Shown piece after piece: positions 175 to 28,243 of a DNA stretch of 34,874 bases (positions within the stretch are counted from its first letter, which is position 1; every line of letters begins with the position of its first letter). A program made the translations under genes and the position numbers. The stretch spans positions 1-34,874 of the forward strand of contig DAOVCF010000002.1 of assembly GCA_030670165.1 (NCBI GenBank), in the 5' to 3' direction. The notes below the pieces were generated by a model. The model ran no database searches. It was given only the letters and a program-made list of their open reading frames with translations, and was not told the DNA's origin. The stretch is from Candidatus Stahliibacteriota bacterium (GTDB lineage: Bacteria; Hydrothermota; Tepidihabitantia; B3-TA06).

Positions 175-1440
175 GTGGAATACCTGGATTTAGGATATGA
201 ACCCACAGATAACGATCTGTTGACAGTTTATCGGGTGCAGCCAGCAGAAGGCAAGAAGTTTGAGGAGGTTGCGGAAGCACTGGCAGGGGAGTCTTCTATC
301 GGAACCTGGACCGACGTTTCAACCATGATTCCCGAACTGGGTGAGAAACTGAGACCGCACATCTACATGATTGATGCTCCTTACGTATGGATCGCGTACC
401 ACTCGGAATTGTTCGAGCCGGGTTCGCTGCCCCAGCTTCTGTCCTCGATCGCCGGAAACATCTACGGGATGAAGGCGGTGGAGCGGTTGAGGTTGGAAGA
501 CTTCAGGCTGCCGAAAGGTATGGTTGAGGGTCTTCAGGGACCTGCCCTTGGCAGGGATGGGGTTCGCGATATGCTGGGTGTCAAGGATAGACCGTTGATC
601 GGAACGATAGTGAAGCCGAAGGTTGGGCTTTCGTCAGAGCAGTTCGCAGACGTTCTCTACGAGGCCATGGCTGGCGGCTGCGACATCGTGAAGGACGACG
701 AGAATTTGACCGATCAGGGATTCAACAGATTTGAGAAAAGGCTGGAGCTGTCCTTGAGAGCGGCGGAAAAAGCGGAACGCGAGACGGGCGAGCGCAAGGG
801 CTATCTGCCCAACGTAACCGCCCCTGCTGACGAGATGCTACGGAGAATGGAACTTGCAAAGAAGACGGGCTCGCGTTACGTTATGGCCGACGTGGTTACT
901 ACAGGATTTTCCGGAGTGCAGATGCTCCGCAATCATACCGACGGCCTGGCGATCCACGCCCACCGGGCGATGTACGCCGCGTTCACAAGGGTGCCTGAGC
1001 ACGGGATGAGCACCCTGGCGTTCTCAAAGCTGTGCCGCCTTGCCGGGGTTGATCAGCTACACGTGGGAACGATTGTCGGAAAGATGGAGGGCTCGAAGGA
1101 AGAAATCCTCAGGATTCACGAGGAGATGAACGGGGCGGTGGTGGGACCAAAGGATAGGTGGCTGGGCCAGGACTGGGGCGGCATCAAGTCGGTGCTATCG
1201 GTTGCCTCCGGCGGCCTGCATCCGTTCCTTATCCCGGCGATCATGGAGAACTTCGGACACCAGGTGGCCATCATGCAGGGCGGGGGCATACACGGCCATC
1301 CTTCAGGCACGAGGGCCGGTGCGAGGACGACGCGCAAGGTAGTGGACGCGGTGCTCAAAGGAGAATCGATGGAATCTCTCGCAGAGCGCGATCCTGATGT
1401 CGGTGCCGCCTACGAGATCTGGGGACATAAGAAGTGGTGA
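175..1440 (+). CDS. rbcL: Ribulose-1,5-bisphosphate carboxylase/oxygenase large subunit, form III-like
   Basis: 421 aa. Catalytic motifs are intact: GTIVKPKVGLS, DIVKDDENL (carbamylated Lys plus metal ligands), HAHRAM, LHVGT..GKMEG, SGGLHP, GGGIHGHP. The protein is collinear with archaeal form III enzymes as I recall them. No small-subunit gene is nearby. GTG start with a strong SD. Confidence 0.92.
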   Translation: MEYLDLGYEPTDNDLLTVYRVQPAEGKKFEEVAEALAGESSIGTWTDVSTMIPELGEKLRPHIYMIDAPYVWIAYHSELFEPGSLPQLLSSIAGNIYGMKAVERLRLEDFRLPKGMVEGLQGPALGRDGVRDMLGVKDRPLIGTIVKPKVGLSSEQFADVLYEAMAGGCDIVKDDENLTDQGFNRFEKRLELSLRAAEKAERETGERKGYLPNVTAPADEMLRRMELAKKTGSRYVMADVVTTGFSGVQMLRNHTDGLAIHAHRAMYAAFTRVPEHGMSTLAFSKLCRLAGVDQLHVGTIVGKMEGSKEEILRIHEEMNGAVVGPKDRWLGQDWGGIKSVLSVASGGLHPFLIPAIMENFGHQVAIMQGGGIHGHPSGTRAGARTTRKVVDAVLKGESMESLAERDPDVGAAYEIWGHKKW

Positions 1441-2366
1441 AGGCCTTTCTTGTGGGGGTGGCTGGCGATTCCGGCTCGGGCAAATCAACCTTTGCTGCCG
1501 GGGTTAGGCGATTGTTTGGAAAGAGTGAGGTGACGACCATCTCTCTGGATGATTATCATCTGTTAGATAGAGAGGAGCGCAAGCGCGCCGGTATAGTTGC
1601 CCTGGATCCACGGGCTAATGACCTTCGAAAACTGGCCGAACATGCTGAGATGCTCAAGGATGGAAGAACGGTCATGAAGCCTCGCTACAATCATTCCACC
1701 GGAAAACTCGACCCGCCCGTGAAATTCAGGCCTAAGAGAGTGGTGATCCTGGAGGGACTTCTGCCTTTTCATACCAGGAGGCTGCGCGAGCTCTTGGATT
1801 TCACCATCTACATCGACCCCGACGTAGAGGTGAAGAGGCTTTGGAAGATAAAACGAGACGTCCAGGAGCGCGGCCACTCAAAAGAGGCGGTGCTCAAATC
1901 CATCGCCGAGCGCGAGCCGCACTACAGGCGATTCATCACCCCCCAGAGAAGGCATGCGGAGATCGTGGTACAGATAAAAAAAGAGCTTGCCGAGGAGCGC
2001 TACCAGCGCGGCACCCCCTACTGGATCAGGTTGATTCAAAGGATAACCGGGGAGAAGCTCACCGACATCCACCTGCCCCTCAATCTCTCCCGCATGTGCC
2101 GAAGCGAGGGCGAGGAGCTTTACTTTGAGTATCGCAAAGGTCTCCGGGGCAAACAGCCGGTTTCCAAGATAGAGATCAACGGCATGATCCCCCGCGAGAT
2201 GATCACCGAGGTGGAGGAACGGATCGCTAATCTGGCTGGCAGGCCGGGTGCAAAGGTACTGCCACGCTCTGAAAGGATGGTTACAGAGATCGGCATCGCC
2301 AAGCTGGTAATCGCCTGGCGGGTTGTAGAGAGGATATTACCCCAAGATCATAAGCCCAACCTCTAG
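1434..2366 (+). CDS. prk: Phosphoribulokinase (plant/cyanobacterial/archaeal type, PRK/uridine kinase family)
   Basis: 310 aa. Motifs GVAGDSGSGKSTF, ISLDDYHLLDREERK, ALDPRANDL, KPRYNHSTGKLDPP and VILEGLLPF track the eukaryote/cyanobacterial-type PRK motifs closely. The GTG start overlaps the rbcL stop by 7 nt (GTGGTGA). Confidence 0.88.
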   Translation: MVKAFLVGVAGDSGSGKSTFAAGVRRLFGKSEVTTISLDDYHLLDREERKRAGIVALDPRANDLRKLAEHAEMLKDGRTVMKPRYNHSTGKLDPPVKFRPKRVVILEGLLPFHTRRLRELLDFTIYIDPDVEVKRLWKIKRDVQERGHSKEAVLKSIAEREPHYRRFITPQRRHAEIVVQIKKELAEERYQRGTPYWIRLIQRITGEKLTDIHLPLNLSRMCRSEGEELYFEYRKGLRGKQPVSKIEINGMIPREMITEVEERIANLAGRPGAKVLPRSERMVTEIGIAKLVIAWRVVERILPQDHKPNL

Positions 2367-2460: not shown

Positions 2461-4683
2461 ATGTCTCTGATTCCAGTCTTTCTGGGGTTGGTTCTCTTTT
2501 CGCAATCGGAGGAGCCCGCCTTTACCGAGAGGGTAGATCCTTACTCCGATCAGCTAAGCAGGCTTGTTTCCATTGACCCGGAGGAAAGGCTACGTGCGGC
2601 GTGGTTTATTCCGGGGTTCTCGGTTAAAAGAGAGAGTCTAGCAGTGGCCGGTAGCAGGCCGGGCGAGGTGCGCGTTCTGCTCGACGGCGTTCCCCTATGG
2701 GACCCGCAGACCGGTGAGCATACCGTCCGGCTTCCCCCCAGTCTTCTTGAAGAAGCCGGCTTGAGGAACGAGGAAGCAAGCCTTACGCCTCTTGTGGCGC
2801 TTTCCTCAAGAACGGCCCTGGAGGGATGGGACGCGGAACTGCGTGGGAGCAGTTCCTTCTTTCTTTCCGGAGAGGAACCCGAAGGCCGTGCGGACGTTTT
2901 CCTGAACGTTCCACTGGGCAGTAAGCTAAGGCTTTCGTTTGACGGCGCCGCCGGGCTGTGGAGCGAGCGTCCTGAAACCAACCTTGAATTGCCGCGTCGC
3001 GGCCTCGCCGCTTACACCGGGGTCGCCTCTGCGACCCTTACACCCTCCGATGGCATGCTTGTTAGAGCCAGACTCCTTCTTTCCCAGGAGCAACGCGATC
3101 GCTTCTCGTCTTCATGGGCGTTCAACCCCGCCTCAGCACCCTCGACTCTAACCGCAGTCCAGCTGGTTATCTTCAATTATCGTTATCAAACCGATATACT
3201 GAACCTGGAGATGTCTCTTTCGGGCTACTCGAGCTTCCTGTGGAAGGGCAGCCGCAAGGAGGGTGAGCTGGCACTCTTTCGGCCCTTCGATGAACAGTAC
3301 TCGGCAGAATCGGCGGCAGCACTGGACATCCGCAACCCGTTCGGGGTCAAGGGGATTTTTTACTCGCAAGGTTTCTACCCCAGGCTTATCGCGCGGAACT
3401 CAACGGCGAATCGCGCCCGGGCGGCAGTCGGAATATTCGCGGGAGAGATGAACGAAATCCGTGCCCGCTTCAGCTACACCACCCTCAACCTGATTTCGGA
3501 TATCACTAAATGGGACGGCCCCAAGGAACGCACGGCAAACTTCCAGGAAACCCCTCGTCTGGCAGGGCTTTACCTGGGTGACCGCATCCACCTCAATCGC
3601 TTCTGGGTAGAACCGGGACTGGGGTTTACGTATCTGGAGATAGAAAAACCGGATACCAGCGAGGTAGGGTTTGAGATCTCCGAATATAAAATCTCCCTTG
3701 CCCCGCGAATCGAAACTCGTGCTTACCTGGGGGGAGTTCAGATACGAGCAGGGATGGATATGCCTGCCGTACCTCCTGCCTTTTCGCTCTTCTTCGATAC
3801 CAGGGATGAGATGCCCCTTACAGATTCTCTCATCATGATTTCTGAGCAGGACCCTGCACCTGAACGCGCCTGGCGCTCGTGGATTGAGGTCCAAAAGGAA
3901 TGGGGAGAGCGCTGGAGCACAGGCATCTCGTTTCACTCAAGTCTGGGTTACAGGGTTCTTTCCGGAGGTCTTAATCCGACCGAGGAGCCTGCCGACACCG
4001 TTCAAACGGCCGGGATCTTCCTGGAGGGCAAAAGTTTCAGCCTGGGACTGGGACCCTTGTTAGAGTACCGCTCGGAATGGCTGGGCATAAGAGCCGCCTA
4101 CCGGTTCGCATCAGCCAAGTCAACAACCCTGGGCCCTATCGGAGACTGCGAGCGCCTTTTGACCGGGGATTCTCTCTCGAATCAGATGCAAAGGCTGCCT
4201 CTCGATTCCCGCCACAAGTTTACGTTGCAAGCCAACCTTGCGACATCTGAAGGGACGCACTTCCTTCTAAGGGATTGGTTCTTGGAACCTGGCTTTGCTC
4301 TGGCCTCAGGCTTCCCTGGTGAGGATGGTGAGGAGGGAGATATTCCCTGGTGGGCATGGTGCGAGGTTAGAGCAGGCAGGGTAATCTCTATCGGCGGGCT
4401 CAAGGCGGAGGTCAGGGTCGAGCTTTTGAATCCATTTAACTGGAAAGAGCCGGTGTTCGGTGAGTTACCAGCCCCTGTTCTTCCCACCGAAGAAGAGTTC
4501 CCGGACAGGGTTGTGCTGGGCGATGAGGATTATCATCCTTCACGCGATGCTAACCACGACGGCTATATAACCGCAGCCGAAGAGGTCCATGCTTACAGAC
4601 GCGCCCGGGAGTTCTACGACGCATACACCCCAAGCCCATTGCCTGCCCGCAGCCTTGATATAAGGATTTCCCTAAAGTTCTAA
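2461..4683 (+). CDS. Outer-membrane beta-barrel protein, TonB-dependent-receptor-like with a divergent plug
   Basis: 740 aa. N-terminal signal-like segment (MSLIPVFLGLVLFSQ). Plug-like stretch PGFSVKRESLAVAGSRPGEVRVLLDGVPLWDP. Long stretches of alternating beta-strand-like pattern. C-terminal ..ISLKF aromatic terminus typical of OM barrels. A canonical EF-hand loop DANHDGYITAAE lies near the C terminus. Confidence 0.6.
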   Translation: MSLIPVFLGLVLFSQSEEPAFTERVDPYSDQLSRLVSIDPEERLRAAWFIPGFSVKRESLAVAGSRPGEVRVLLDGVPLWDPQTGEHTVRLPPSLLEEAGLRNEEASLTPLVALSSRTALEGWDAELRGSSSFFLSGEEPEGRADVFLNVPLGSKLRLSFDGAAGLWSERPETNLELPRRGLAAYTGVASATLTPSDGMLVRARLLLSQEQRDRFSSSWAFNPASAPSTLTAVQLVIFNYRYQTDILNLEMSLSGYSSFLWKGSRKEGELALFRPFDEQYSAESAAALDIRNPFGVKGIFYSQGFYPRLIARNSTANRARAAVGIFAGEMNEIRARFSYTTLNLISDITKWDGPKERTANFQETPRLAGLYLGDRIHLNRFWVEPGLGFTYLEIEKPDTSEVGFEISEYKISLAPRIETRAYLGGVQIRAGMDMPAVPPAFSLFFDTRDEMPLTDSLIMISEQDPAPERAWRSWIEVQKEWGERWSTGISFHSSLGYRVLSGGLNPTEEPADTVQTAGIFLEGKSFSLGLGPLLEYRSEWLGIRAAYRFASAKSTTLGPIGDCERLLTGDSLSNQMQRLPLDSRHKFTLQANLATSEGTHFLLRDWFLEPGFALASGFPGEDGEEGDIPWWAWCEVRAGRVISIGGLKAEVRVELLNPFNWKEPVFGELPAPVLPTEEEFPDRVVLGDEDYHPSRDANHDGYITAAEEVHAYRRAREFYDAYTPSPLPARSLDIRISLKF

Positions 4684-11583: not shown

Positions 11584-11611
11584 TTGACAAACCGCTGGTT
11601 TTCCTTACACT
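11584..11611 (+). promoter_or_regulatory. Sigma70-like promoter of the signalling operon
   Basis: TTGACA (11584-11589), 16-nt spacer, TACACT (11606-11611). Divergent from the Wza-like promoter. Confidence 0.5.
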
Positions 11612-11652
11612 ATGTTCTTAATTATCTTAAAGATGCAACAGAGTAAGGAGGT

Positions 11653-13209
11653 TTGGTGAACGTGGAAAAAGACAGGCGAACGAAGGAACTTTTGGAAGCC
11701 ATCAGGCTTAAGACGCAGTTTCTGGGTAACATGAGCCACGAGCTCCGTACGCCATTGAACTCGATAATCGGCTTTTCGGAGCTTCTCATGGATGGGCTTG
11801 TTGGGGAACTCAGCGAGAAGCAGGGTCACTATATAAAAATCATCCACTCCTCCGGTGCGCATCTTCTCAGGTTGATTAACGATACCCTTGACTTCTCCAA
11901 GCTTGAAGCGGGTATGCTTGAGGTCTTCAACGAACCTACCGATTTGGGCGAGGTGGTTGAAGATGTTTTGCGTGCCTACAACGTAGTCGCTGAACGAAAG
12001 GGACTCGATATCCATGTAGAGATCCCTGCGGATATGCCGCCAGTACTCACCGACAGGCGCAAACTCACCCAGATAATCGACAACCTCCTCTCCAACTCCG
12101 TAAAGTTCACCAGCCAGGGCCGGGTTGAGTTGGCAGCCAAGCGTAAAGAAGGTATGCTTGAGGTAACGGTAACCGACACCGGGATAGGGATCGAGCCGCA
12201 AGAGCTCCCGTATATCTTCGATCCATTCCATCAGGTGGATGCATCCACCACCCGGCGCTACGAGGGAACAGGTCTTGGGCTGGCATTGGTAAAGAAACTT
12301 CTTGAGATTCAGAAGGGTACAATCGAGGTTCAAAGCTTGCCTTCTCAAGGCTCCAGCTTTACCTTCCGTCTTCCCTTTGTGGAGTTCAAGCCCGAGAAGC
12401 CTACAGTGGCGACTACGCGAGAGGAGTTGATCCAGGGGCTTCCTGCGGCCGGCGAGCGACCCATCCTGGTGGTTGAGGACAACCCCTTGGCGGCTAACCT
12501 CATGTCGACGTGGCTTTCTGAGGCCGGCTACAATGTCCAGATCGCCTCCACTGGCGAGGAAGCCCTGCAGAAGGCGGTGAACCTCTGTCCAGCTGTGATT
12601 ACCCTGGACATCCTCCTTCCTCAGATGGACGGCTGGCGCGTACTGCATCGTCTCAAGGAGATGCCTGAGACCAAGGATACACCAATCATAGTGGTCTCGA
12701 TAGTGGAGGACAAAAGTTTCGGCCTCTCGCTTGGGGCGGTAGACTACATGATCAAGCCGGTATCGCGCAGCAATCTCATCTCGAAGATTGAGCGCCTCAC
12801 CAAGAGCGGCCGCAGGTTCCATCGTGTCCTCGTGATAGACGACAATCCCGCGGACATCAGCTTGGTAGAGGAGATACTTCAACTGGACGGCTACGAGGTG
12901 CTCAAGGCTACCTCCGGAGTGGATGGTCTCAAGGCCGCGCGCGAGGAGAAGCCGGATCTCGTGATTCTGGATTTGATGATGCCTGACCTGGATGGTTTCG
13001 ATGTTATGAGACTTTTGGAGTCCGACGAAGCCACCAGAGGATTACCGATTATTCTCTTTACTGCCAAGGACCTTACCCAGATTGAGCGAGCCAACCTGGG
13101 GGCCAACATCCACGATATCTTCGGCAAGGCGCAGCTTGACCGCGACTCCTTTCGTCAAAAGATCGCCGAGCTTCTGACATCCTCACAACCGGAAGGCAGT
13201 AACGAATGA
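11653..13209 (+). CDS. Hybrid sensor histidine kinase without an input domain (HisKA, HATPase, REC, REC)
   Basis: 518 aa. H-box MSHELRTPLNSI starts near residue 27. N-box DNLLSNSVKF, G-boxes DTGIGI and GTGLGLALV. Two receivers follow (ITLDILLPQMDG, VILDLMMPDLDG). No TM, PAS or GAF before the DHp. AAGGAGG at 11645-11651 makes GTG 11656 or GTG 11662 more likely starts than TTG 11653. Confidence 0.9.
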   Translation: MVNVEKDRRTKELLEAIRLKTQFLGNMSHELRTPLNSIIGFSELLMDGLVGELSEKQGHYIKIIHSSGAHLLRLINDTLDFSKLEAGMLEVFNEPTDLGEVVEDVLRAYNVVAERKGLDIHVEIPADMPPVLTDRRKLTQIIDNLLSNSVKFTSQGRVELAAKRKEGMLEVTVTDTGIGIEPQELPYIFDPFHQVDASTTRRYEGTGLGLALVKKLLEIQKGTIEVQSLPSQGSSFTFRLPFVEFKPEKPTVATTREELIQGLPAAGERPILVVEDNPLAANLMSTWLSEAGYNVQIASTGEEALQKAVNLCPAVITLDILLPQMDGWRVLHRLKEMPETKDTPIIVVSIVEDKSFGLSLGAVDYMIKPVSRSNLISKIERLTKSGRRFHRVLVIDDNPADISLVEEILQLDGYEVLKATSGVDGLKAAREEKPDLVILDLMMPDLDGFDVMRLLESDEATRGLPIILFTAKDLTQIERANLGANIHDIFGKAQLDRDSFRQKIAELLTSSQPEGSNE

Positions 13210-13586
13210 GCCGTATCCTCGTCGTTGAAGATAATGAAGGGAATCTCGAGCTTATACGCGTGGTGCTGGAGATGGCAGGCCATGAGGTGATAGGAGCGCC
13301 GAGTGCCGATGTGGGGCTCCTGGTGGCCAGAAAAGCCCGCCCCGATCTTATACTTATGGACATGCACCTGCCTGGTCTGGATGGATACGAAGCGACGCGA
13401 ATCATAAAGGCGGATGAGACATTGAAGGGCATTCCGGTCATTGCGGTCACCGCCATCACCGAGCGCACCGATGAGGAACGTATTCGTGCCTGCGGCTGCG
13501 AGGGATTCATCGCCAAGCCGGTGGATACCCGAAGTCTGGCCACCCAGATTGCCGGGTTCCTGAAACCGGGGGGCAAGACACAGTGA
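13206..13586 (+). CDS. Single-domain response regulator (CheY-like receiver)
   Basis: 126 aa. ILVVEDN.., DLILMDMHLPGLDG, AVTA.., GFIAKP. ATGA overlap with the kinase stop. Confidence 0.9.
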   Translation: MSRILVVEDNEGNLELIRVVLEMAGHEVIGAPSADVGLLVARKARPDLILMDMHLPGLDGYEATRIIKADETLKGIPVIAVTAITERTDEERIRACGCEGFIAKPVDTRSLATQIAGFLKPGGKTQ

Positions 13587-15154
13587 TGGAACAAGGGAAA
13601 ACCTCTCATCGAATACTGGTGGTAGACGACGACCCCCATCTTTTGAATCTCCTCGATATGCGCCTGGCTGATCAGGGATTTGACGTCATGCTCGCTTCAT
13701 CCGCCCAGGAAGCGCTCACAAAGGTAGAAGGCAGGATGCCAGACATCGTTATCGCAGACATCATGATGCCCGGCATGGATGGATATGAGCTCTGCGAGCG
13801 CGTCCGCGCAAACGAAAAGCTGCAGCACATCCCGTTCGTCTTCCTCTCCGCATTAGCCGACACCCAGGATAAGGTAAGGGGGTTAAAGCTGGGGGCGGAC
13901 GACTACCTCACCAAACCGTTTGAGTTCCACGAGCTACTCGCAAGGATAGAGATACTTTTGGATAGATACTCGCGCTACCAGGAGACCTTCGAACAAGACC
14001 CGGAGATCGCCACCACCGGGAACATCGAGGATCTGGGGGTCATTGACCTGTTGCAGATGCTCTCCTTCGGCCAGAAGACGGGCGAGGTGCATCTTAAGTC
14101 GGATGAAGAGGAGGGGTTTCTTTACTTGATGTCTGGCAAGCTCGTAGCAGCAACCTGCCGTTCGAAACAGGGACGGGCTGCACTGCCGACCCTGCTTTCC
14201 TGGTCGAAGGGCAGATTCAGAGTAAAGCTCACCGATAGCCTCTCTCTTACTCCTACGATCGAAACTCAGACCGACGAGGCGATCTTTGCGGCGCTACGTG
14301 AGCTGGACGAAACCGAACGTATAAAACAGGAGTTAGGCCCAAGGTCTATCCCAGTGTTCGCGGCGAAACCCAGGCCCGAAGCAAGGGTCGAGGAGGTCCT
14401 GCTCCGGCTGGTAGACGGTAACCGCAGTATCAAAGAGGTACTGGCAGCGAGTTCTCTCTCGAGCTTCGAGACAATCGAGGCGATAAAAAAGATGGTGGGC
14501 AAGGGACAAATCGAGCTGCGCCCTGCGGAAAAACCTGCTCCGAAGATTGCCACCAAACCTGAGAAAACCCCTGCTTTGGAGCCGGGAACCACCCTTTCCG
14601 GGGCGGCCAGGGTATGGGAACCGCAGATGCCTGGAGAGGAAAAAGAAGTCGAGAAGATTGAGAAGATGCAGGAGACTGCAGTTCCGGGGGAGATTGGACC
14701 CCAGGTATTCAATCTTATAGTGATCGGCACGAACAGGGATTCCCGCAACACCTTTATCCATACGGTCTCCGGCGAGGAAGAAACAGAGGGCAAAGGAGAG
14801 ACGGTTCTCAACTTCGGAAGGATAAAAATAGGACATTACCAACTGAACCTCTATGGGCTACCAGGGGCAAAACGCTTCGCTCCCCTCTGGCAGACCTTCA
14901 TTCAAAGGGTACACGGGATGATAGTTCTGGCGAACGCCAGCATCGAGGAAGAGGTAGACAACCTGCGGTTTGCACTTTCGCTTCTGGGTCCGCACATACC
15001 GGGTCCGAAGATCGTTATAAACACCGATCCCACCCATCCCGAGATCAAGCTCGGTCCGGAGAGTCATGGTGCAAAGGCCGTTGCCTGCCTGTCCTCTGAC
15101 CGCATCAAGGCCGCTGGGATCGTAAAGAACCTGATCGCAGAACTTACCCGCTAA
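13583..15154 (+). CDS. Response regulator: REC, DUF4388/PATAN, Pro/Lys/Glu-rich linker, degenerate Ras-like (COG2229/MglA-like) domain
   Basis: 523 aa. REC at residues 9-125 ([21 protein letters not shown]). PATAN-like [67 protein letters not shown] helix segment. Low-complexity linker. C-terminal [49 protein letters not shown] matches the layout of small GTPases of the MglA/CvnD type, but G1 and G3 are eroded. GTGA overlap with the upstream stop. Confidence 0.8.
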
Positions 15155-15161
15155 ATCCAAA

Positions 15162-17219
15162 ATGAACCTTGCTAAACTTCGCAACATAGGAATAGCCGCA
15201 CACATAGATGCGGGAAAGACCACCACGACCGAGCGTATACTCTACTACGCCAAAAAGATACACCGCATGGGCGAGGTGGACTCAGGTTCGGCAACCATGG
15301 ACTGGATGGCCCAGGAGCGCGAGAGGGGGATAACCATAACCTCGGCGGCAACAACCGTGGGCTGGAAGGACGCGAGGATTAACATCATTGATACCCCTGG
15401 GCACGTGGATTTTACGATAGAGGTGGAGCGCGCTCTCAAGGTGCTTGACGGTGCTGTGGTGGTGTTCTGTGCGGTTGGCGGTGTGGAGCCTCAGTCGGAG
15501 ACGGTCTGGCACCAGGCTGATAGATACCGCATCCCACGCATTGCGTTCGTTAACAAGATGGACCGCCTTGGCGCGGACTTCGAGCGGGTGGTGGATATGA
15601 TGTCATCGCGCTTCCTCCAGTTCCCTGTACCTGTGCAGATTCCCTGGGGTGCGGAGCAGGGTTTTGAGGGCGTGATCGACTTGGTGGGGTGGCGTGCAGT
15701 CCGCTGGAAGGATGAGACGTTGGGGGCGGAGTTCATGGAGGAGGAGATTCCCGGCGAACTCGTGGATGAAGCCAAGCGCTGGCGCCAGCATCTTGTGGAT
15801 AAGGCAAGCGAAGCGGAGGATACCATCATCGAAGACTACATGGCTGGCCAGAAGAGCGAAAGCGTGACCCTGCGGAAGGCGTTACGCAAGCTTACCCTGG
15901 AGAACAAGATAGTGCCAGTGTTATGCGGCTCCGCTTTGAAGAACAAGGGGGTGCAGCCTCTTCTGGATGCGGTAATAGACTACCTGCCCTCACCCCTGGA
16001 TGTGCCACTAATCGAGGGACACGATCCGGCAAACGTGGAAAAGATTCTCCTGCGTGAAACCTCTCCGGACGCGCCCTTCTCCGCGCTGGTCTTCAAGCTC
16101 GCCTACGACCCTCACATGGGGCCATTGGCGTTCACGAGGGTCTATTCCGGTAGGATCGAACGCGGCCAGACTGTAATGGGTTTCCCCGGGGGCAAGCGCT
16201 CACGCGCCACCAAACTACTCTTGCCTCACTCCAACCGCTTCGAGGAGGTTTCTAAGCTCGAGGCGGGCGAGATCGGGTTGATCACAGGTCTGCGTCACGT
16301 GACCACCGGCTCAACCCTGGCCGATCAGAAGAACCCCATCGTCTATGAGCTGATGCGTTTCCCTGAGCCGGTTATCCACCAGTCGATCGAGCCGCATACC
16401 AAGGCGGACGAGGCCAAACTGGGCAAGAGCCTTGCGATCCTTGAGCTTGAAGATCCAACCTTCAAGGTACGTACCGACCCGGAGACCGCCCAGCTTCTCA
16501 TTTCAGGGATGGGCGAGCTGCACCTGGAGATCATCGTTGATCGGCTCAAGCGTGAGTTCCGATTGCCGGTGCGGACCGGCAAGCCACAGGTCTCATACCG
16601 GGAGACCATCACCAAGAGGGTGGAGCACTCCGCGGTCTTCTCAAGGATCATCGCCAACAAGACCTATTATGCCGGCGTTACGTTAAAGCTTGAACCCTAC
16701 GAGAGCGGTAAAAAGGTAGAAATACACCTTCCTGTGCCGCTTGGACGCGAGTTCCTGGACGCCATTCGTTCGAGCCTTACCGATTCCTTCTTCGCCGGCC
16801 CAATGCTGGGCTATCCCATAACTAAGGTACGAGTTACGGTTACGGACGTGGAGTTCAGGGAGGAGGATGCTTCGGACATCGCGTTCAAGGCCGCGGCATC
16901 CCAGGCGTTCAGTGAAGCATACCAGAAGGCTTCTCCGGCACTTCTTGAGCCGATCATGGACGTTGAGGTAATAACCCCTGAGCCATACATGGGGGATGTG
17001 ATTGCGGATATCAACACCCGGCGCGGAAAGATAGAGGAGCTTACCAACATAAAGGAGCAAAAACTCATCAAGGGATTCATGCCCCTTGCCGCGAGCTTCG
17101 GGTATGCGACGGCGCTTCGGTCACTTACCCAGGGACGCGCCAGCTTTGCCATGCACTTCTCGCACTACGCGATACTCCCCGAGACAGAGCGCCGCAAGCT
17201 CTTCGACTACCTTGTGTAA
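15162..17219 (+). CDS. fusA: Translation elongation factor G (outside the str-operon context; possibly a paralog)
   Basis: 685 aa. [35 protein letters not shown], with all five EF-G domains collinear. Starts 7 nt after the upstream stop with no SD. Confidence 0.92.
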
Positions 17220-18470: not shown

Positions 18471-20471
18471 TCAGTAGAAAACGCTCAATCCGGCGTAGAA
18501 TCTCCTAGGAGCAGTTGGATAGTCGAGGTCGTTAAGCCCGCCGAAGTGGGCTGGTGTCTGATCGTTGGTAAGATTCTTCACACCGATCTCGACAGTAAGG
18601 AGATTAAACAGCTTCTGGGAGACGGTGGCATCGAGTTTCAGGGAAGGCCTTATGATCTTTTCGATCACCCCGATCTCAGGATAGGGCGAGTAGTCCGGGT
18701 AGTAGTTGATGCGTTCAGCCGTCCATGCGACAGCGGTCGCTATCTCTCCGCCGCTCCAAGCCCGTATTGCCAGATTCCCTTTCAGGATAAGCGGCGGGAT
18801 GAACGCCGCCTGACGGGTGACCTCTGCGGTTTGCGTCTGTCCTGTCATCCAGTCGGAATAGGTAACTATGGTACGGGTTTCCGTTGCGTCGTTGTAGGCG
18901 ACGCCCAGCGATCCGCTGAACAGGCCGTCGGCAATCCGCCAATTAGTTGAGAACTCCGCGCCCAGGATGGTAACCTGATCCACGTTTGACGGCCTCCAGA
19001 AACCTGCCGAATCGGGCGACCACGAAATCATGTCCTTGATGAGCTTCCACGATCCGGCCAGGTAGAACTTGAGGAATCCAAACGGGCGGATAGTAGCAGA
19101 AAGAGTGGTGCTCTGTCCCTTTTCAGGAACCAGGGTTGAATCGCCCCCTGAGAAGCAATCTCGGGGCCAGTAAAGGTCGTTGAACCCGGGCGCGCGGAAC
19201 GCCTGGCCGTAGGCCGCTGAAACATAGAGCATCCGGGGAATAACCTCGACGCTCAAACCGGCCTCAGGTGAGATGAAGATTCCGTACTGAGCGGAGTTAT
19301 TGAGTCTTACCGCCGCGCTCGGGGTAAAGATGCCTGCCTTAGCCAGAACCTCGGCCCAGGCGCCTGTCTGCATATCGGAGGCTTCCCAGGTGGTGTCCTT
19401 GAGGGTGGCGTCAGTGGCGCTGTCTGCGGCAACCTGCGCGCCTTCAAACGTCTCCTGGACTATACAGGCTCCACCAGCAAGGGTGAGGAATTCGTCAATC
19501 GTTCCGGTCACCTGGAGATCGCCGCCCAGACGGGTGTCGTTGTAGCCATCGGTTTCAAGCGCGGTATAGGTCGTAAAGTCGGGGTTATAGCCCAGGTATT
19601 TCCAGTTATAGGTGAAATCCTGCTGGACCGCGTAGAAAGCCAGCGAGGCGGTGAAGCCCTGTAATGGAGAGAAGGAGGTTTTGAGACTTGCGGTGAATAG
19701 ATTGTCTGCCTGATCGTCGTAGAGCGATGTGACAAGCGAGTCGCCGAACGCAGGCGGCATAAAGGCGGTGCCCGAAGTATCAGGTGCGGGTCCGGGCACG
19801 CCCAGTTCGCGGGAGGTATAGCCTGCATCGACTTCGAGATGAAGCGCCTCGATGGGGGAAACCCACAAAGCTGCGCCTGTGTTGTAGCGCGATACGTCGT
19901 CGTTGTGCCGGAATCCAGGATTGGTAAGCCAGGAACCGGCGACACGCGCCCCAAAGATTCCAAAGTTGTGGGCGGCGCGAGCTCCGGCGTTCATGCCCAT
20001 CTGATCGGTGGCCCCGAGAGTTGCTGATACCCCGTTTTTCTTCGATGGGATAACGTTGACGACCCCGCCGATGGCCGATGAGCCGTAAAGTGCGGATAAT
20101 GGCCCCTTTACGACCTCCACCCGGTCGCCAGGCGCAAGAGGAATAAGGGAGAGATCTATAACACCGTCGCGCCGGGAGTTCATGTGTACGCCGTTTGCGA
20201 GAACCAGAACCCGTGATGCACTTACTCCCCCTAGAAACGGAAAGGCTGAGTGTCCCTCATAACCGTATGAGCGCACGTCTGCAGATACGCTTTGTGCAAG
20301 AACATCGGTGAGGTCGGTGACCTCTTCAGATTCCAGCACCTCCACCGGCCAGGGGGATGCCTCTGCGGGAAGCGAGAGTTTTGTGGCGGTAACCACAACC
20401 TCGGGCATCTCGTAGACGGTCAGGTCTTCCGCCTGCGAGAAAAGCAGGGATAAAAGCACGAGCTTTATCAC
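18471..20471 (-). CDS. btuB: TonB-dependent receptor, probably a cobalamin/corrinoid transporter
   Basis: 666 aa. Signal peptide, TonB-box/plug region (LTVYEMPEVVVTATK, plug with GGVVNVI), a 22-strand-sized barrel and a terminal ..AGLSVFY. The specificity call rests on the cobalamin riboswitch in its leader. Confidence 0.8.
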   Translation of the reverse strand: MIKLVLLSLLFSQAEDLTVYEMPEVVVTATKLSLPAEASPWPVEVLESEEVTDLTDVLAQSVSADVRSYGYEGHSAFPFLGGVSASRVLVLANGVHMNSRRDGVIDLSLIPLAPGDRVEVVKGPLSALYGSSAIGGVVNVIPSKKNGVSATLGATDQMGMNAGARAAHNFGIFGARVAGSWLTNPGFRHNDDVSRYNTGAALWVSPIEALHLEVDAGYTSRELGVPGPAPDTSGTAFMPPAFGDSLVTSLYDDQADNLFTASLKTSFSPLQGFTASLAFYAVQQDFTYNWKYLGYNPDFTTYTALETDGYNDTRLGGDLQVTGTIDEFLTLAGGACIVQETFEGAQVAADSATDATLKDTTWEASDMQTGAWAEVLAKAGIFTPSAAVRLNNSAQYGIFISPEAGLSVEVIPRMLYVSAAYGQAFRAPGFNDLYWPRDCFSGGDSTLVPEKGQSTTLSATIRPFGFLKFYLAGSWKLIKDMISWSPDSAGFWRPSNVDQVTILGAEFSTNWRIADGLFSGSLGVAYNDATETRTIVTYSDWMTGQTQTAEVTRQAAFIPPLILKGNLAIRAWSGGEIATAVAWTAERINYYPDYSPYPEIGVIEKIIRPSLKLDATVSQKLFNLLTVEIGVKNLTNDQTPAHFGGLNDLDYPTAPRRFYAGLSVFY

Positions 20472-24690: not shown

Positions 24691-26448
24691 ATGATTCTTA
24701 CATTAATCCTTTTCCTACAGGTGGGATTTGAACATACCTCCTCGCTGCTCCTTGGGGGTCATTTCCAGTCGGGCGCGGCGGACGAGGAGCTTCTTTACGT
24801 AGCCGACGGCAGAGGCGTAAGCGTATTCGAGAAAAAAACCCTCAGTCGCCGCGGCGAGCTCATGCTTTCTGGTAGAACCAACCTGATCGTGCGCCATGAG
24901 TCGAGCCTTTTTGTTGGGGGCAGCAGAGGGCTTGCAAAGATAGAGGTAAGCAGCTTCTCGCAGGAGTACCCGCAGGCAGAGTGGCTCTATACCGAGCCGA
25001 TAACGGCGTTGGAGGTCTTTGGGCGCAAGCTTTGGTTTGCGGATGATAAGGCCCGGCTGTATGGTATGGATGTTGCAGGAGGCGCAAGCTCGCCATCTTG
25101 CTCGATCCAGCTGCCTCTGCCGCCTGTGAAGATCGTTGGTAACGAGGCAAGGCTCTATCTTGCGACAGACACAGGTGGGCTTTTTGTGCTGGACCTTGAA
25201 GCAAAGGCCTTACAGGCAAAGAGGATGACGATCGAGGGCGACCCGGCGGTTATGGATGTCTTGATTGCAGACCAGACGGTCTACCTTGCGTGTGCCGAGC
25301 AGGGGCTTTGGGTGAGCGAGCCCAGGCGCAACTCCCTTAAGGTCGTCAAGCGTATTGAGGTTACGGGTGAGGTAATGAGCCTGGAGCTGTTCGATGAGAG
25401 GATTGCAGCGGCTGCGGGAACCGGGGATTTCCTTCTCTTCTCGATTGCCGACCCGGATGAACCCGTCGAGATTCAGAGAGAACGTTTCCCTGGGATGGGA
25501 CTCAACCTTGCAAAAGCTGGCGAGGACTGCTTTTTGCTCACAGGTGCAGGCATAGGGCATATGGATCTCTCAACCAAACCCCTGGCAGGGCATGGATTGT
25601 TCTACAGGGGTGCGGGTTCCGGCTACGAGATCCTGAGCAAAGGAGGGGTGGCGGTTCTTGCGGCGGGCGACGCCGGAATAAGGACCGTCGGTCTAGGAGA
25701 CAGCCTGAGTTTCCTTGGCGAGCACTCTCAGATGTCAGGCTGCCGTAGGGTGTATCTCTTCGGCTCACAGGTCTATGTGCTGACCACAAGTAATATGATG
25801 TATGTAGTAGAGATAAAGGACCCCAAGCGTCCGGAGAAACGCACCTTCCTGCAGTTTGAGTCGGCAGCCTCGGGGGTGGACTCGGAGGGTGAGATGCTCC
25901 TTGCGGCGGAGCATGAGCGCGGGGTGGGGATCTGGTGGCGCTGTCCGTGCGGCCCATTCAAGGAGCAAGGACGCTGGGACTTCGGCGCCCAGGCGCTGGA
26001 CGTGAGGATCAAAGACAAGCTTGCCTTCGTTTCCGCAGACCCCCCGGCCCTTTACGTGATTGACTGGTCAGACAGCACCAACCCGGAGCAGGTGGCAAGC
26101 CTCGCGCTTGAGCGTGACTGCGAGAGGTTATACGCCGACGAAGACCTTTTATTCGGCCTTGATTCCTCAGGTGCGCTCACCGTTGTCAACGTGGCCCGCC
26201 CCACACGGCCTAAGAAACTCGCCGTGCTCGAACTGGAAGGCTCCCCCACCGCCCTGGCACGCTACGAGGATTATATGTTCATAGCGGCACAGGACGCAGG
26301 GGTGCACGTGGTGGATATATCCAAACCCCAATCCCCTGAGCTCATATCTACCCTGGACGTGGGACCGGCAATGGGGGTGGCGGTATCTGGAGACCTGCTT
26401 CTCGTCTCGACCCTCTACTCTATAGAGGCGTATAGGATTCAACCTTAA
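24691..26448 (+). CDS. LVIVD-repeat beta-propeller protein, paralog 1
   Basis: 585 aa. Hydrophobic N terminus. Repeated units such as LYVADGRGVSVFE, LYLATDTGGLFVLDL, VYLACAEQGLWVSE, MFIAAQDAGVHVVDISKPQSPELI, LLLVSTLYSIEAYRI. Confidence 0.75.
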   Translation: MILTLILFLQVGFEHTSSLLLGGHFQSGAADEELLYVADGRGVSVFEKKTLSRRGELMLSGRTNLIVRHESSLFVGGSRGLAKIEVSSFSQEYPQAEWLYTEPITALEVFGRKLWFADDKARLYGMDVAGGASSPSCSIQLPLPPVKIVGNEARLYLATDTGGLFVLDLEAKALQAKRMTIEGDPAVMDVLIADQTVYLACAEQGLWVSEPRRNSLKVVKRIEVTGEVMSLELFDERIAAAAGTGDFLLFSIADPDEPVEIQRERFPGMGLNLAKAGEDCFLLTGAGIGHMDLSTKPLAGHGLFYRGAGSGYEILSKGGVAVLAAGDAGIRTVGLGDSLSFLGEHSQMSGCRRVYLFGSQVYVLTTSNMMYVVEIKDPKRPEKRTFLQFESAASGVDSEGEMLLAAEHERGVGIWWRCPCGPFKEQGRWDFGAQALDVRIKDKLAFVSADPPALYVIDWSDSTNPEQVASLALERDCERLYADEDLLFGLDSSGALTVVNVARPTRPKKLAVLELEGSPTALARYEDYMFIAAQDAGVHVVDISKPQSPELISTLDVGPAMGVAVSGDLLLVSTLYSIEAYRIQP

Positions 26449-26461
26449 AGGAGAGCAAAAG

Positions 26462-28243
26462 GTGTTCGCAGGATTTCTTTTAACTGTGATGTTCGTATCG
26501 GCCCCAGATGCGCAGCCAGTGGAAGTATTATTCGAGGATGGCCGCAACTACTTTATATCAGGGGATTTTTCGGATCTGGTTGAGGTCAAAGGAACGCTTT
26601 ACGCCGCAAGCGGTTTCGGGCTTACGATAGTTCCTGCAGATCTCAGTACTCAGGAACACATCCCCACACCACACTACTCAAGAAAGATAGCGCTGGCGGG
26701 CAAGCAAGTATATCTTGGTGAAGGCAACCGGATCACTGAGTTCAAGATTTCGACCAAGGGAACCCAGATGTTGACCGCCTATCCTGTGGAAGGGAAGGTG
26801 ACGGCGCTTGCTGCCCGCAAGGATTTGCTGGCAGGGGGCACGGATTCGGCAAAGATCGTAATCTTCTCGCAGGGGAAGGAATCGAAGCTCCTCGGGGCGA
26901 TTGACGCACCCGGTGCGGTGAAAGACCTCTTTATCTACCGTGAGTTCCTCTACGCGGCGTGCGGCATGGGCGGGGTCGCGATCATTGAGCTTGGAGAGAA
27001 CCACTCTATTGTGCGGACCCTGGATGTTCCCGGTGCCCAGGCACTTACGGTTGCAGAAGACCTTCTCTTCGTTGCAACCGCCGCCGCAGATATCCTCGCT
27101 TTCTCTCTTGCCGATCCTTCCTCTCCCCACCAGGAAAAGGTCTTTTCAAGCGGTTCTGAGGTGGTCTCGCTTGCGTACTACGACAAGCATCTGTACGCAG
27201 CCCAGGGATATCAGGGTTATTCCATCTTCAACCTCGAGGGCGAACGTGTGGAGACAGCCGAGCCGTTCCGCCAGGGGGACGTTACCTGCATCCTCCCAAC
27301 CAAGGAAGTGGTGTTCCTGGCGCTCCGGGAAAGGGGTATGGTGCGCCTGGAAGGAAGCATGCCGCAGGAGTTAAGCGTGACTGCTCGCCTGCAGCAGAAT
27401 TCCCCCTCGGTTCACACCTCGCAAAGCGGCGCGTTCTGGGCGGTGGCACGGGGCAGGGACGGTGCAAGCATCGGGAGACTTTTGGAAGGGGAGGAGTGTG
27501 TAACCTGGGGTCATGCCGAGCCCGTGCCCAAAAGAGCCGCAGGGGTTCTTCTCTCTGGAACGTACCTTTACGTAGCGGACGCAGACCGCAGTGCTTCTAT
27601 ATTTGATTTAAAGACCTTCCCCTTTGCAGAACGCAAGTTGGACCTGAATCAGCCCGGTACACCCCAGCGTTTTGCCCTGAGCGGGGATTTGATATTCCTT
27701 GCCGCAGGCGACAGAGGGTTAAGGGCCCTATGGATATGCCCCTGCGGTCCGCTCCAGCAGAGGGTAGCCTTAGAAGGTATTGAGGCAGTAGACGTGGCGA
27801 CAAAGGATTCCATCGTATACGTGGCCGACCCCGACTCCGGACTGCGGGTGATGGCGGTAAGGAATAAGAATCAGGAAATTCACGAACTTTCTATCTATCC
27901 CGGCGTCATAAGCCCGCAAGCGCTCCTGCTGGATCAGGATCTGCTGTACGTAGCCGACTCGATCGGTGCTGTTGTGGCCCTTGATATCTCCGAGGCAAAG
28001 AATCCCAGACAACTCTCCTTCGCCTTCATCGAAACGCAACCCTACGGGATGGCTCTTGTGGATTCAACCCTGTACGTGGCCTGCGGCGAGGATGGGGTTT
28101 TGCCAATAGACGTGAGCGATCCCTCATCGCCGGTCGTGGGCGAGTTCATCAGCACCCCTGGAAAAGCGCTTTCGGTGGCCGCATCTCGTAAATATCTTGG
28201 GGTCGCCGACTACACATCCTGGGTGCTCGTACCTACAGATTAG
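26462..28243 (+). CDS. LVIVD-repeat beta-propeller protein, paralog 2
   Basis: 593 aa. Signal-like MFAGFLLTVMFVSAPDA. Repeats include LYAACGMGGVAIIEL, LFVATAAADILAFSLADPSSP, VYVADPDSGLRVMAV, LYVADSIGAVVALDISEAKNPRQL, LYVACGEDGVLPIDVSDPSSPVV. SD AAAGGAGAG lies before the GTG. Confidence 0.75.
   Translation: MFAGFLLTVMFVSAPDAQPVEVLFEDGRNYFISGDFSDLVEVKGTLYAASGFGLTIVPADLSTQEHIPTPHYSRKIALAGKQVYLGEGNRITEFKISTKGTQMLTAYPVEGKVTALAARKDLLAGGTDSAKIVIFSQGKESKLLGAIDAPGAVKDLFIYREFLYAACGMGGVAIIELGENHSIVRTLDVPGAQALTVAEDLLFVATAAADILAFSLADPSSPHQEKVFSSGSEVVSLAYYDKHLYAAQGYQGYSIFNLEGERVETAEPFRQGDVTCILPTKEVVFLALRERGMVRLEGSMPQELSVTARLQQNSPSVHTSQSGAFWAVARGRDGASIGRLLEGEECVTWGHAEPVPKRAAGVLLSGTYLYVADADRSASIFDLKTFPFAERKLDLNQPGTPQRFALSGDLIFLAAGDRGLRALWICPCGPLQQRVALEGIEAVDVATKDSIVYVADPDSGLRVMAVRNKNQEIHELSIYPGVISPQALLLDQDLLYVADSIGAVVALDISEAKNPRQLSFAFIETQPYGMALVDSTLYVACGEDGVLPIDVSDPSSPVVGEFISTPGKALSVAASRKYLGVADYTSWVLVPTD

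Follow-up and report, generated by a model that had tools for sequence, protein, structure and literature searches.

We analysed a 34,874-nucleotide (nt) stretch of Candidatus Stahliibacteriota bacterium DNA (contig DAOVCF010000002.1, positions 1 to 34,874; hereafter the window), which carries an operon of four tightly packed plus-strand genes (11653-17219). In order, these genes encode a hybrid histidine kinase with the domains HisKA-HATPase-REC-REC (gene 1), a lone receiver, or REC, domain (gene 2), a REC-PATAN-linker-small-GTPase-like protein (gene 3) and a translational GTPase of the elongation factor G (EF-G) family (gene 4). We observe that gene order and spacing are conserved in relatives, that the GTPase-like domain has degenerate nucleotide motifs and that the EF-G has an altered domain IV tip. 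We tentatively propose that the signalling genes control this EF-G.

A two-component cassette runs into an EF-G gene

The four genes are joined by an ATGA overlap (gene 1/gene 2, 13206-13209), a GTGA overlap (gene 2/gene 3, 13583-13586) and a 7-nt gap (gene 3/EF-G, 15155-15161) that contains no Shine-Dalgarno (SD) sequence. A preliminary description, made from the letters of the DNA, had given this same layout, and its assignments of kinase, receiver, DUF4388/PATAN and small-GTPase-like domains are upheld by Pfam. A promoter-like site sits in a 168-nt divergent intergenic region (Table 1). A sequence scan found no plus-strand terminator-like site inside the cluster, Rfam and tRNA scans returned nothing within the operon, and the neighbouring open reading frames (ORFs) gave no mobile-element context around it. 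A PADLOC scan gave generic receiver-domain matches only and no defence system. A 425-amino-acid (aa) ORF lies antisense to the kinase gene (11605-12882, minus strand), and other long ORFs likewise run antisense across genes 3 and 4. All of these are probably mechanical ORFs in GC-rich coding sequence.

Gene 1 has the features that define a HisKA-family kinase, namely an H-box (His29 within SHELRTPLN) inside HisKA (aa 20-87, E=4.7e-23) and HATPase_c (aa 134-242, E=2.7e-29) with intact G1 and G2 boxes (DTGIGI and GTGLGL). Two receivers follow, REC1 (aa 271-379, acceptor Asp in LDILLP) and REC2 (about aa 393-505, acceptor Asp in LDLMMP). The N-terminal sensor or input domain that is usual, if not obligatory, in such kinases is absent. 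Only 19 aa precede HisKA, which leaves no room for a sensor, and a longer N-terminal extension is excluded because an in-frame TAA at 11644 closes the reading frame. Homologues of 512-530 aa have the same architecture. The kinase had been called input-less, and this is accurate for the clade of the window but not for a sister operon described below, which has a GAF-PAS kinase. The best partial matches of gene 1 in NCBIfam are BarA/TorS/ArcB-type hybrid kinases, which share the HisKA-HATPase core followed by a receiver. Gene 1 differs from these in having two tandem receivers and neither a periplasmic or PAS sensor nor an Hpt domain; it is also only 518 aa long, and its scores all fall far under the equivalog cutoffs.

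Gene 2 is 66-96% identical across the related loci that extend to it. When aligned to E. coli CheY, all four receivers of the operon keep the acceptor Asp, as had been claimed, along with the D/E-D pair, the T/S and the K (CheY D57, D12/D13, T87 and K109). REC2 of gene 1 is atypical around the Lys, with an insertion and no K-P motif. Pfam detected no Hpt domain in the four products or the flanking ORFs of the window; this search covered the operon and its neighbours, and an unlinked Hpt elsewhere is possible. Since no Hpt was found, the two kinase receivers are more likely to be sinks or inputs than relay steps. The kinase of the sister operon is a plain GAF-PAS protein without a receiver, suggesting that the ancestral circuit was a simple His-to-Asp system. 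The circuit is best read as direct His-to-Asp transfer, in a direction that we infer.

Table 1. Positions in the window of the operon genes, their notable segments and other signals.
Feature	Coordinates	Strand	Basis
Promoter-like site, TTGACA-16 nt-TACACT (putative)	11584-11611	+	Consensus scan, 10/12 matches
In-frame TAA closing the gene 1 reading frame upstream	11644-11646	+	Read directly from sequence
Shine-Dalgarno AAGGAGG before gene 1	11645-11651	+	Read directly from sequence
Gene 1, hybrid histidine kinase, 518 aa	ORF 11653-13209, likely start GTG 11656	+	Pfam, NCBIfam hybrid-kinase models, motifs, receiver residues
Gene 2, single-domain receiver, 126 aa, Asp in MDMHLP	13206-13586	+	Pfam Response_reg E=1e-22
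Gene 3, response-regulator adaptor	13583-15154, likelier start ATG 13586	+	Pfam, 18-homologue alignment, AlphaFold models, PDB profile and fold matches
Degenerate P-loop of gene 3	14723-14755	+	G382, R385, R388 and N389 invariant, compared with GxxxxGK[ST] of GTPases
Switch II/interswitch-like block of gene 3, nearly invariant	14849-14899	+	Aligns with WDIGGQPRFRSMW of Arl8
Gene 4, EF-G-family translational GTPase, 685 aa	15162-17219	+	Pfam, TIGR00484, PDB matches, motifs
Domain IV loop 1 of gene 4	16638-16676	+	Canonical F[IV]RQ[ST]GG[RK]GQ[YF]G; window copy has IIAN at Q-x-G-G
Domain IV loop 2 of gene 4	16845-16877	+	Canonical DGSYHEVDSSE; window copy has R-E-E-D-A-S
Cobalamin riboswitch RF00174	20553-20725	-	73 bits; directly upstream of a TonB-dependent receptor gene

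The gene 3-EF-G junction is conserved in three lineages

We searched 5.8 billion proteins with the PATAN and C-terminal part of gene 3. Only 19 clusters were returned, all with REC and PatA_N, and the homologues are labelled candidate division WOR-3, Candidatus Stahlbacteria or TA06 B3_TA06. Assemblies with the operon include GCA_016934635.1, GCA_965649265.1 and GCA_964624585.1, as well as the metagenome-assembled genomes that encode TET21725.1 and TKJ42752.1. In every clade locus that we fetched (eight groups, L001, L002, L003/4/108, L005-7, L008, L101-104, L105-107 and L109, plus the partial L094), the same genes stand in the same order, and all four are present where the contig end does not cut the locus. 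Their products are a kinase (512-530 aa), a receiver (122-128 aa), a REC-PATAN-X protein and an EF-G (685-688 aa). Their junctions are overlaps or very short gaps, and across relatives the gap before EF-G is -1 to 17 nt. Identity to the window protein is 55-99% for gene 3 and 74-99% for EF-G, and metagenome contigs of about 105-110 kb hold the same locus at 97-99% protein identity. The flanking genes vary between lineages. Because gene order and tight junctions recur in relatives with unrelated flanks, the arrangement is not a product of chance.

Beyond this clade, the identities of EF-G matches drop sharply, from 74-99% to at most 58%. Two deeper variants, with EF-Gs 57-59% identical to that of the window, also have a REC-PATAN-pseudoGTPase gene directly followed by EF-G. 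Among EF-Gs from beyond the clade, P0033 comes nearest (57% identity; L095-97, from hydrothermal sediment metagenomes), and its gene starts on the last base of the stop codon of a 451-aa REC-PATAN gene (1-nt overlap). Compared with gene 3, the 451-aa protein shows 44% identity in its REC-PATAN part and 35% in its C-terminal domain. Upstream of its gene are a GAF-PAS-HisKA-HATPase kinase without receivers and a lone receiver, which make this the sister operon. In a third lineage (P0176, L100), EF-G begins 12 nt after the gene 3 homologue, and the locus is cut before the kinase. The linkage of gene 3 to both EF-G and the kinase that had been anticipated from the window is thus found in the three closest lineages, as far as the cut third locus extends. 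It is not universal, since two more distant REC-PATAN-pseudoGTPase genes are not linked to EF-G. Judging from these loci, the signalling core (receiver, kinase and REC-PATAN-pseudoGTPase) appears to be older and wider than the EF-G link, which spans three lineages.

The C-terminal domain of gene 3 is a predicted pseudo-GTPase

ATG 13586 is the likelier start of gene 3 because homologues begin at the second Met. Pfam places REC at aa 11-123 and PATAN/DUF4388 (PF14332, PatA_N) at aa 145-244 (67.4 bits, cutoff 25; matched in every homologue), and it gives a weak Arf match at aa 376-462. In a full-length AlphaFold model, REC and PATAN are followed by a small helical, winged-helix-like segment (about aa 256-313), a linker and a G-like domain. 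The disordered Pro/Lys/Glu linker (about aa 317-370) differs in length by more than 100 residues among homologues, and the G-like domain spans aa 374-523.

When a profile of the C-terminal domain from 18 homologues was compared with the PDB, the matches were Arl8, Arl2 and Arf (best E=2e-7, Arl8). The AlphaFold model of this domain, with a predicted local distance difference test (pLDDT) value of 82.5, has small G-domain topology, with helix alpha-4 not predicted. Foldseek matched the model to Rab, Arl8, Rheb and Asgard ArfR with probability 1.0 and template modelling (TM) scores of about 0.7. At the P-loop, gene 3 reads GTNRDSRN (G-x-x-R-x-x-R-N), invariant in the 18 homologues, in which Gly is replaced by Ser, Lys by Arg and Ser/Thr by Asn. 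The G3 region reads YGLPGA, with neither Asp nor Gln and with Gly in place of the DxxG Asp, and G4 reads INTDPT instead of NKxD. The 35%-identical variant retains RxxRN, YGLPG, NTxPT and CLPSD, and the more distant members P0176, P0180 and P0188 retain RxxR[N/D]. Sequence and models together indicate that the C-terminus of gene 3 is a real Ras-superfamily fold, Arf/MglA-like, that has lost its nucleotide motifs. We class it as a pseudo-GTPase because its P-loop is degenerate (RxxRN) and NKxD is absent, in keeping with the eroded G motifs that the preliminary description had noted.

An exhaustive profile search with this domain against 1.84 billion representatives gave only 16 matches below 1e-10, and NCBIfam has no model for it. 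The nearest true GTPases have an MglA-like xPGQ G3 motif and an intact GK[ST]. When compared with M. xanthus MglA using hhalign, only the stretch from switch II to beta-5 was matched, at 77% probability. Because this match is partial, we call the domain Arf/MglA-like and not a member of the MglA family. The proteins most closely related to the pseudo-GTPase domain (P0187, P0210, P0221 and P0203) include TIR-HEAT-GTPase and KaiC-GTPase fusions, and the P-loop of P0221 is itself degenerate.

No DNA-binding or enzymatic output domain was found in gene 3 by Pfam, suggesting that it acts by protein-protein contact. PatA-type regulators (PatA, PixG and PixE) are PATAN-REC proteins whose output is also through protein contact and not DNA binding. 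Gene 3 shares PATAN and a receiver with this type, but the order is reversed, with REC first, there is an extra pseudo-GTPase, and no pilus genes are near. A Ras-superfamily domain is combined with histidine-kinase/receiver signalling in the Myxococcus MglA/MglB polarity system and in the actinobacterial conservon CvnA-D, and PATAN genes are known beside mglA/mglB-type G-protein genes (PMC4316618). In contrast to MglA/MglB and CvnA-D, the G domain of the operon is fused to REC-PATAN and predicted to be nucleotide-dead, there is no MglB/Roadblock GTPase-activating protein and no CvnC-like gene, and the linked effector gene is EF-G.

The operon EF-G has an altered domain IV tip

Gene 4 encodes the five EF-G domains recognised by Pfam (GTP_EFTU, D2, EFG_III, EFG_IV and EFG_C), with intact G1-G5 motifs. 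Against the EF-G equivalog TIGR00484, its score is 861 bits (cutoff 659). Its closest PDB entries are canonical EF-Gs (T. thermophilus 736 bits, E. coli 711 bits), compared with about 500-513 bits for mitochondrial EF-G1/2 and 311 bits for Thermus EF-G2. In NCBIfam it reaches 420 bits on the Bacteroides EF-G2 model (NF058620, cutoff 1000) and 381.6 bits on tet_protect (cutoff 775), below membership of Tet(M)/Tet(O). The protein had been described as a complete EF-G without an SD of its own. The domains are indeed complete and there is no SD, but the tip of domain IV is degenerate and not canonical.

In loop 1 of the window EF-G, the equivalent of Gln507 and both conserved glycines are gone, and in loop 2 the equivalent of His583 (E. 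coli) or His573 (T. thermophilus) is Arg. The protein therefore has neither the loop-1 Q-x-G-G nor the loop-2 His-x-x-Asp-Ser-Ser with which a canonical translocase touches the codon-anticodon duplex. Among nine operon-clade EF-Gs, the Gln507 equivalent is hydrophobic and the second loop-1 Gly is replaced by Asn, Gln or Thr in every case (9/9), and the loop-2 His position is Arg or Lys in all ten operon-linked EF-Gs for which the region is available. The P0033 EF-G keeps Q-x-G-G but has Lys at the loop-2 His position. In the same alignment, canonical-tip EF-Gs keep GG and His in 19 of 19 sequences.

Residues at the domain IV tip touch the anticodon loop; with the substitutions H583R/K, and with changes at Q507 and nearby, translocation is slower and -1 frameshifting more frequent, and H583R emerged as a dominant-lethal mutation (PMC7749637). 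The two loop-1 glycines are universally conserved among translocases. Recycling-only human EF-G2mt and Borrelia EF-G2 have another residue in place of one of these glycines, and mutations of the loop-1 tip have little effect on ribosome disassembly (PMC8203779). Like the operon EF-G, human EF-G2mt and Borrelia burgdorferi EF-G2 have five domains, an intact GTPase and altered loop-1 glycines (PMC8203779). The operon EF-G is nearer to canonical EF-G (736 bits) than to EF-G2mt (about 510) or Thermus EF-G2 (311), and it goes beyond the glycine change in also replacing the loop-2 His. Other EF-G2 proteins, those of Bacteroides and mycobacteria, are paralogues for particular (stress) conditions that exist alongside canonical EF-G. 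These alter or lose GTPase activity, whereas the operon EF-G has intact G motifs and is changed at the domain IV tip. A full-text literature search found no recycling-type EF-G paralogue reported in an operon with a two-component system, no report of EF-G2, response regulator and histidine kinase together, and no biologically relevant PATAN-EF-G link, the 17 co-occurrences of the two being incidental. We rate the system as a new combination of known kinds, in which both the pseudo-GTPase and the EF-G belong to new subfamilies.

A neighbour-joining tree unites all operon-linked EF-Gs in a single clade, with support from 88% of 200 bootstraps, and places canonical WOR-3 EF-Gs outside it. Neither the loop-1 GG nor the loop-2 His is present in three further EF-G-like proteins (P0363, P0366 and P0059), of which two carry the WOR-3 label, and these three group separately from the operon-linked clade. 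Their sequences hint that tip-degenerate EF-G paralogues are common in the WOR-3 phylum, and the three may constitute a second family of such paralogues.

We also examined where canonical EF-G genes lie. Those of WOR-3 (L009-L013) have gyrB as a neighbour or come after an ORF of 441 aa that matches nothing in Pfam, and none of them is within an rpsL-rpsG-fusA-tuf operon. The 441-aa ORF (L011) was considered as a relative of gene 3 and rejected, its sequence being unrelated. The location of gene 4 outside rpsL-rpsG-fusA-tuf, which had been pointed out as unusual, is real but not special, and it carries little weight because the canonical WOR-3 EF-G genes are also outside. A genome-collection scan with the back-translated EF-G pattern TMDWMAQE returned 80 loci, 49-54% identical and from unrelated phyla, with no operon-type locus among them. 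Tracing cluster members and accession numbers showed that the accessions of genes 3 and 4 are adjacent and yielded no second EF-G from the same assembly. The earlier idea that gene 4 is an EF-G paralogue is therefore strengthened by the degenerate tip, but the paralogy itself is not shown.

A possible signalling route to a ribosome-binding EF-G

Of the four operon products, EF-G alone is not a signalling protein. Its GTPase and ribosome-binding domains are intact, but it lacks the domain IV tip residues by which canonical EF-G shifts the tRNA-mRNA duplex. From sequence, it appears to be translationally coupled to gene 3 and to have co-diverged with it. For these reasons we propose a two-component pathway in which the phosphorylation state of gene 3 would govern, on the ribosome, a specialised EF-G paralogue that translocates poorly. 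We favour this reading while giving it a little less than an even chance of being correct.

According to this proposal, the sensor-less kinase would autophosphorylate on His29 and hand the phosphate directly to receivers, direct transfer being proposed because no Hpt was found. The receiver of gene 3 would be the productive phosphate acceptor, and the two C-terminal receivers of the kinase, together with gene 2, would serve as inputs, sinks or modulators. In the clade of the window, these two C-terminal receivers would have replaced the GAF-PAS input, and they may take input from other kinases or be sinks. The output of gene 3 would be PATAN and a nucleotide-dead Arf/MglA-like domain on a flexible linker, working by protein contact. 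The operon EF-G would be a ribosome-binding paralogue and not the main translocase, and it may recycle ribosomes, split subunits or slow translation. Phosphorylation of gene 3 would then set the activity, ribosome access or location of EF-G. The pathway thus supposes a contact between gene 3 and EF-G, a non-translocase role for EF-G and a second, canonical EF-G in the same genome. A more specific version, in which phosphorylation of the adaptor would decide whether a dedicated, non-translocating EF-G paralogue is on the ribosome or off it (regulated splitting or recycling, or a slow-translation state), is possible but doubtful.

Known outputs of two-component systems are transcription factors, second-messenger enzymes and motor or polarity proteins. 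If the proposal is true, the operon would represent a class of signalling output undescribed for bacterial two-component systems and would give a first function to a bacterial pseudo-GTPase. A conserved operon with a modified EF-G as its sole non-signalling product suggests that signalling acts directly on a factor that binds the ribosome. The natural variants of the domain IV tip bear on how EF-G paralogues split translocation from other ribosome tasks. The operon also presents a bacterial small-GTPase fold that appears to be fixed in a nucleotide-dead state with two invariant arginines, and it defines a candidate partner for the poorly understood PATAN domain. All parts are soluble, which opens them to assays of phosphotransfer, binding and ribosome function although most of the organisms have not been cultured; one WOR-3 isolate, sy37, is in culture (PMC12285271).

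Several points weigh against the proposal. Gene 4 passes the EF-G equivalog cutoff and has canonical EF-G structures as its nearest matches, and it could therefore be the sole EF-G of a fast-evolving lineage. E. coli H583R cuts translocation-linked rates only about twofold in vitro (PMC7749637). The monophyly of the operon-linked EF-Gs could mirror organismal phylogeny. A second canonical EF-G has been demonstrated in no operon-bearing genome, the scan having returned only unrelated EF-Gs. Two distant REC-PATAN-pseudoGTPase genes, P0188 and P0180, have no EF-G downstream (loci L098, 208-2430, and L099, 231-4144). The genes after P0188 are groES-groEL, and after P0180 come a hairpin and an AT-rich spacer; the hairpin-ended gene follows a receiver and a GAF-PAS kinase. 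There is also a stand-alone pseudo-GTPase (L110, 9935-10459) with a PATAN-only gene nearby and no EF-G within 10 kb. These distant members suggest that the signalling core can work without an adjacent EF-G. Finally, the claims about interaction, transcript and phosphotransfer are drawn from sequence.

The stand-alone pseudo-GTPase keeps RxxRN, YGIPS, NTDP and CFPSDR. The PATAN-only ORF (330 aa, 11677-12669) lies 1.2 kb from it, with an ACT-domain gene between them, on a 196-kb contig from the same metagenome as L102.

Four other readings of the operon were weighed. The main one is that only neighbourhood connects the genes, with EF-G being an ordinary sole translocase whose fusA gene has left the str operon and come to lie downstream of a signalling cassette with some other target. 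The full-length protein, its score above the TIGR00484 cutoff and its intact GTPase motifs are what this reading expects, as are the varied contexts of canonical WOR-3 EF-G genes outside rpsL-rpsG-fusA-tuf and the failure of the scan to return a second EF-G from an operon-bearing genome. However, three lineages share the SD-less adjacency of -1 to 17 nt, even where EF-G identity is as low as 57% and where flanks and kinase architecture differ. Moreover, the domain IV tip residues that are lost here are functionally critical and are kept in 19/19 canonical-tip sequences. We therefore consider mere neighbourhood unlikely.

Somewhat more unlikely still is a polarity or motility circuit, in which type IV pili or cell polarity would be the target of the kinase, receiver and REC-PATAN-pseudoGTPase, and EF-G would be co-transcribed for expression only. 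Cyanobacterial PATAN response regulators bind the type IV pilus motor, PATAN genes are found near MglA/MglB genes, and the xPGQ motif of the nearest true GTPases is MglA-like. The distant family members without an adjacent EF-G are also consistent with such a circuit. Yet no pilus, MglB/Roadblock or motility gene is present in the operon or the variable flanks of any locus fetched, and a nucleotide-dead GTPase domain cannot cycle as MglA does. This reading also leaves the conserved coupling to a modified EF-G unexplained.

The preliminary description had favoured a multi-step His-Asp-His-Asp phosphorelay ending on a pseudo-GTPase scaffold. A hybrid kinase and four receivers, all with the acceptor Asp, would suit a relay, but we find it improbable. 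Because no Hpt domain was found in the four products or neighbouring ORFs, the relay is unsupported; the kinase sequence is fully occupied by its four domains, and the kinase of the sister operon is an ordinary GAF-PAS protein without a receiver. Inducible ribosome protection, in which the altered tip of the operon EF-G would dislodge an inhibitor in the manner of Tet(M)/Tet(O) under two-component control, is very improbable. Ribosome protection proteins are EF-G paralogues, and the operon EF-G partially matches tet_protect models. However, its score there is 382 bits (cutoff 775) and it resembles EF-G far more, the operon has no transcriptional regulator to make EF-G inducible, and there is no mobile-element context.

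Other features of the window

Downstream of the operon, the cobalamin riboswitch precedes a TonB-dependent receptor ORF (18471-20471, minus strand) in a BtuB-like arrangement. In L001, L005 and L008, too, the operon is followed within a few kb by TonB-dependent receptor genes. Elsewhere in the window, a 740-aa ORF without a Pfam match (2461-4683, plus strand) and two tandem genes of about 590 aa with LVIVD repeats (24691-28243, plus strand) were observed. A RuBisCO large-subunit gene (175-1440, plus strand) overlaps a phosphoribulokinase gene (1434-2366, plus strand). WOR-3 genomes have been reported with archaeal-type form III RuBisCO (PMC12542636), and the RuBisCO-phosphoribulokinase pair of the window fits this report.

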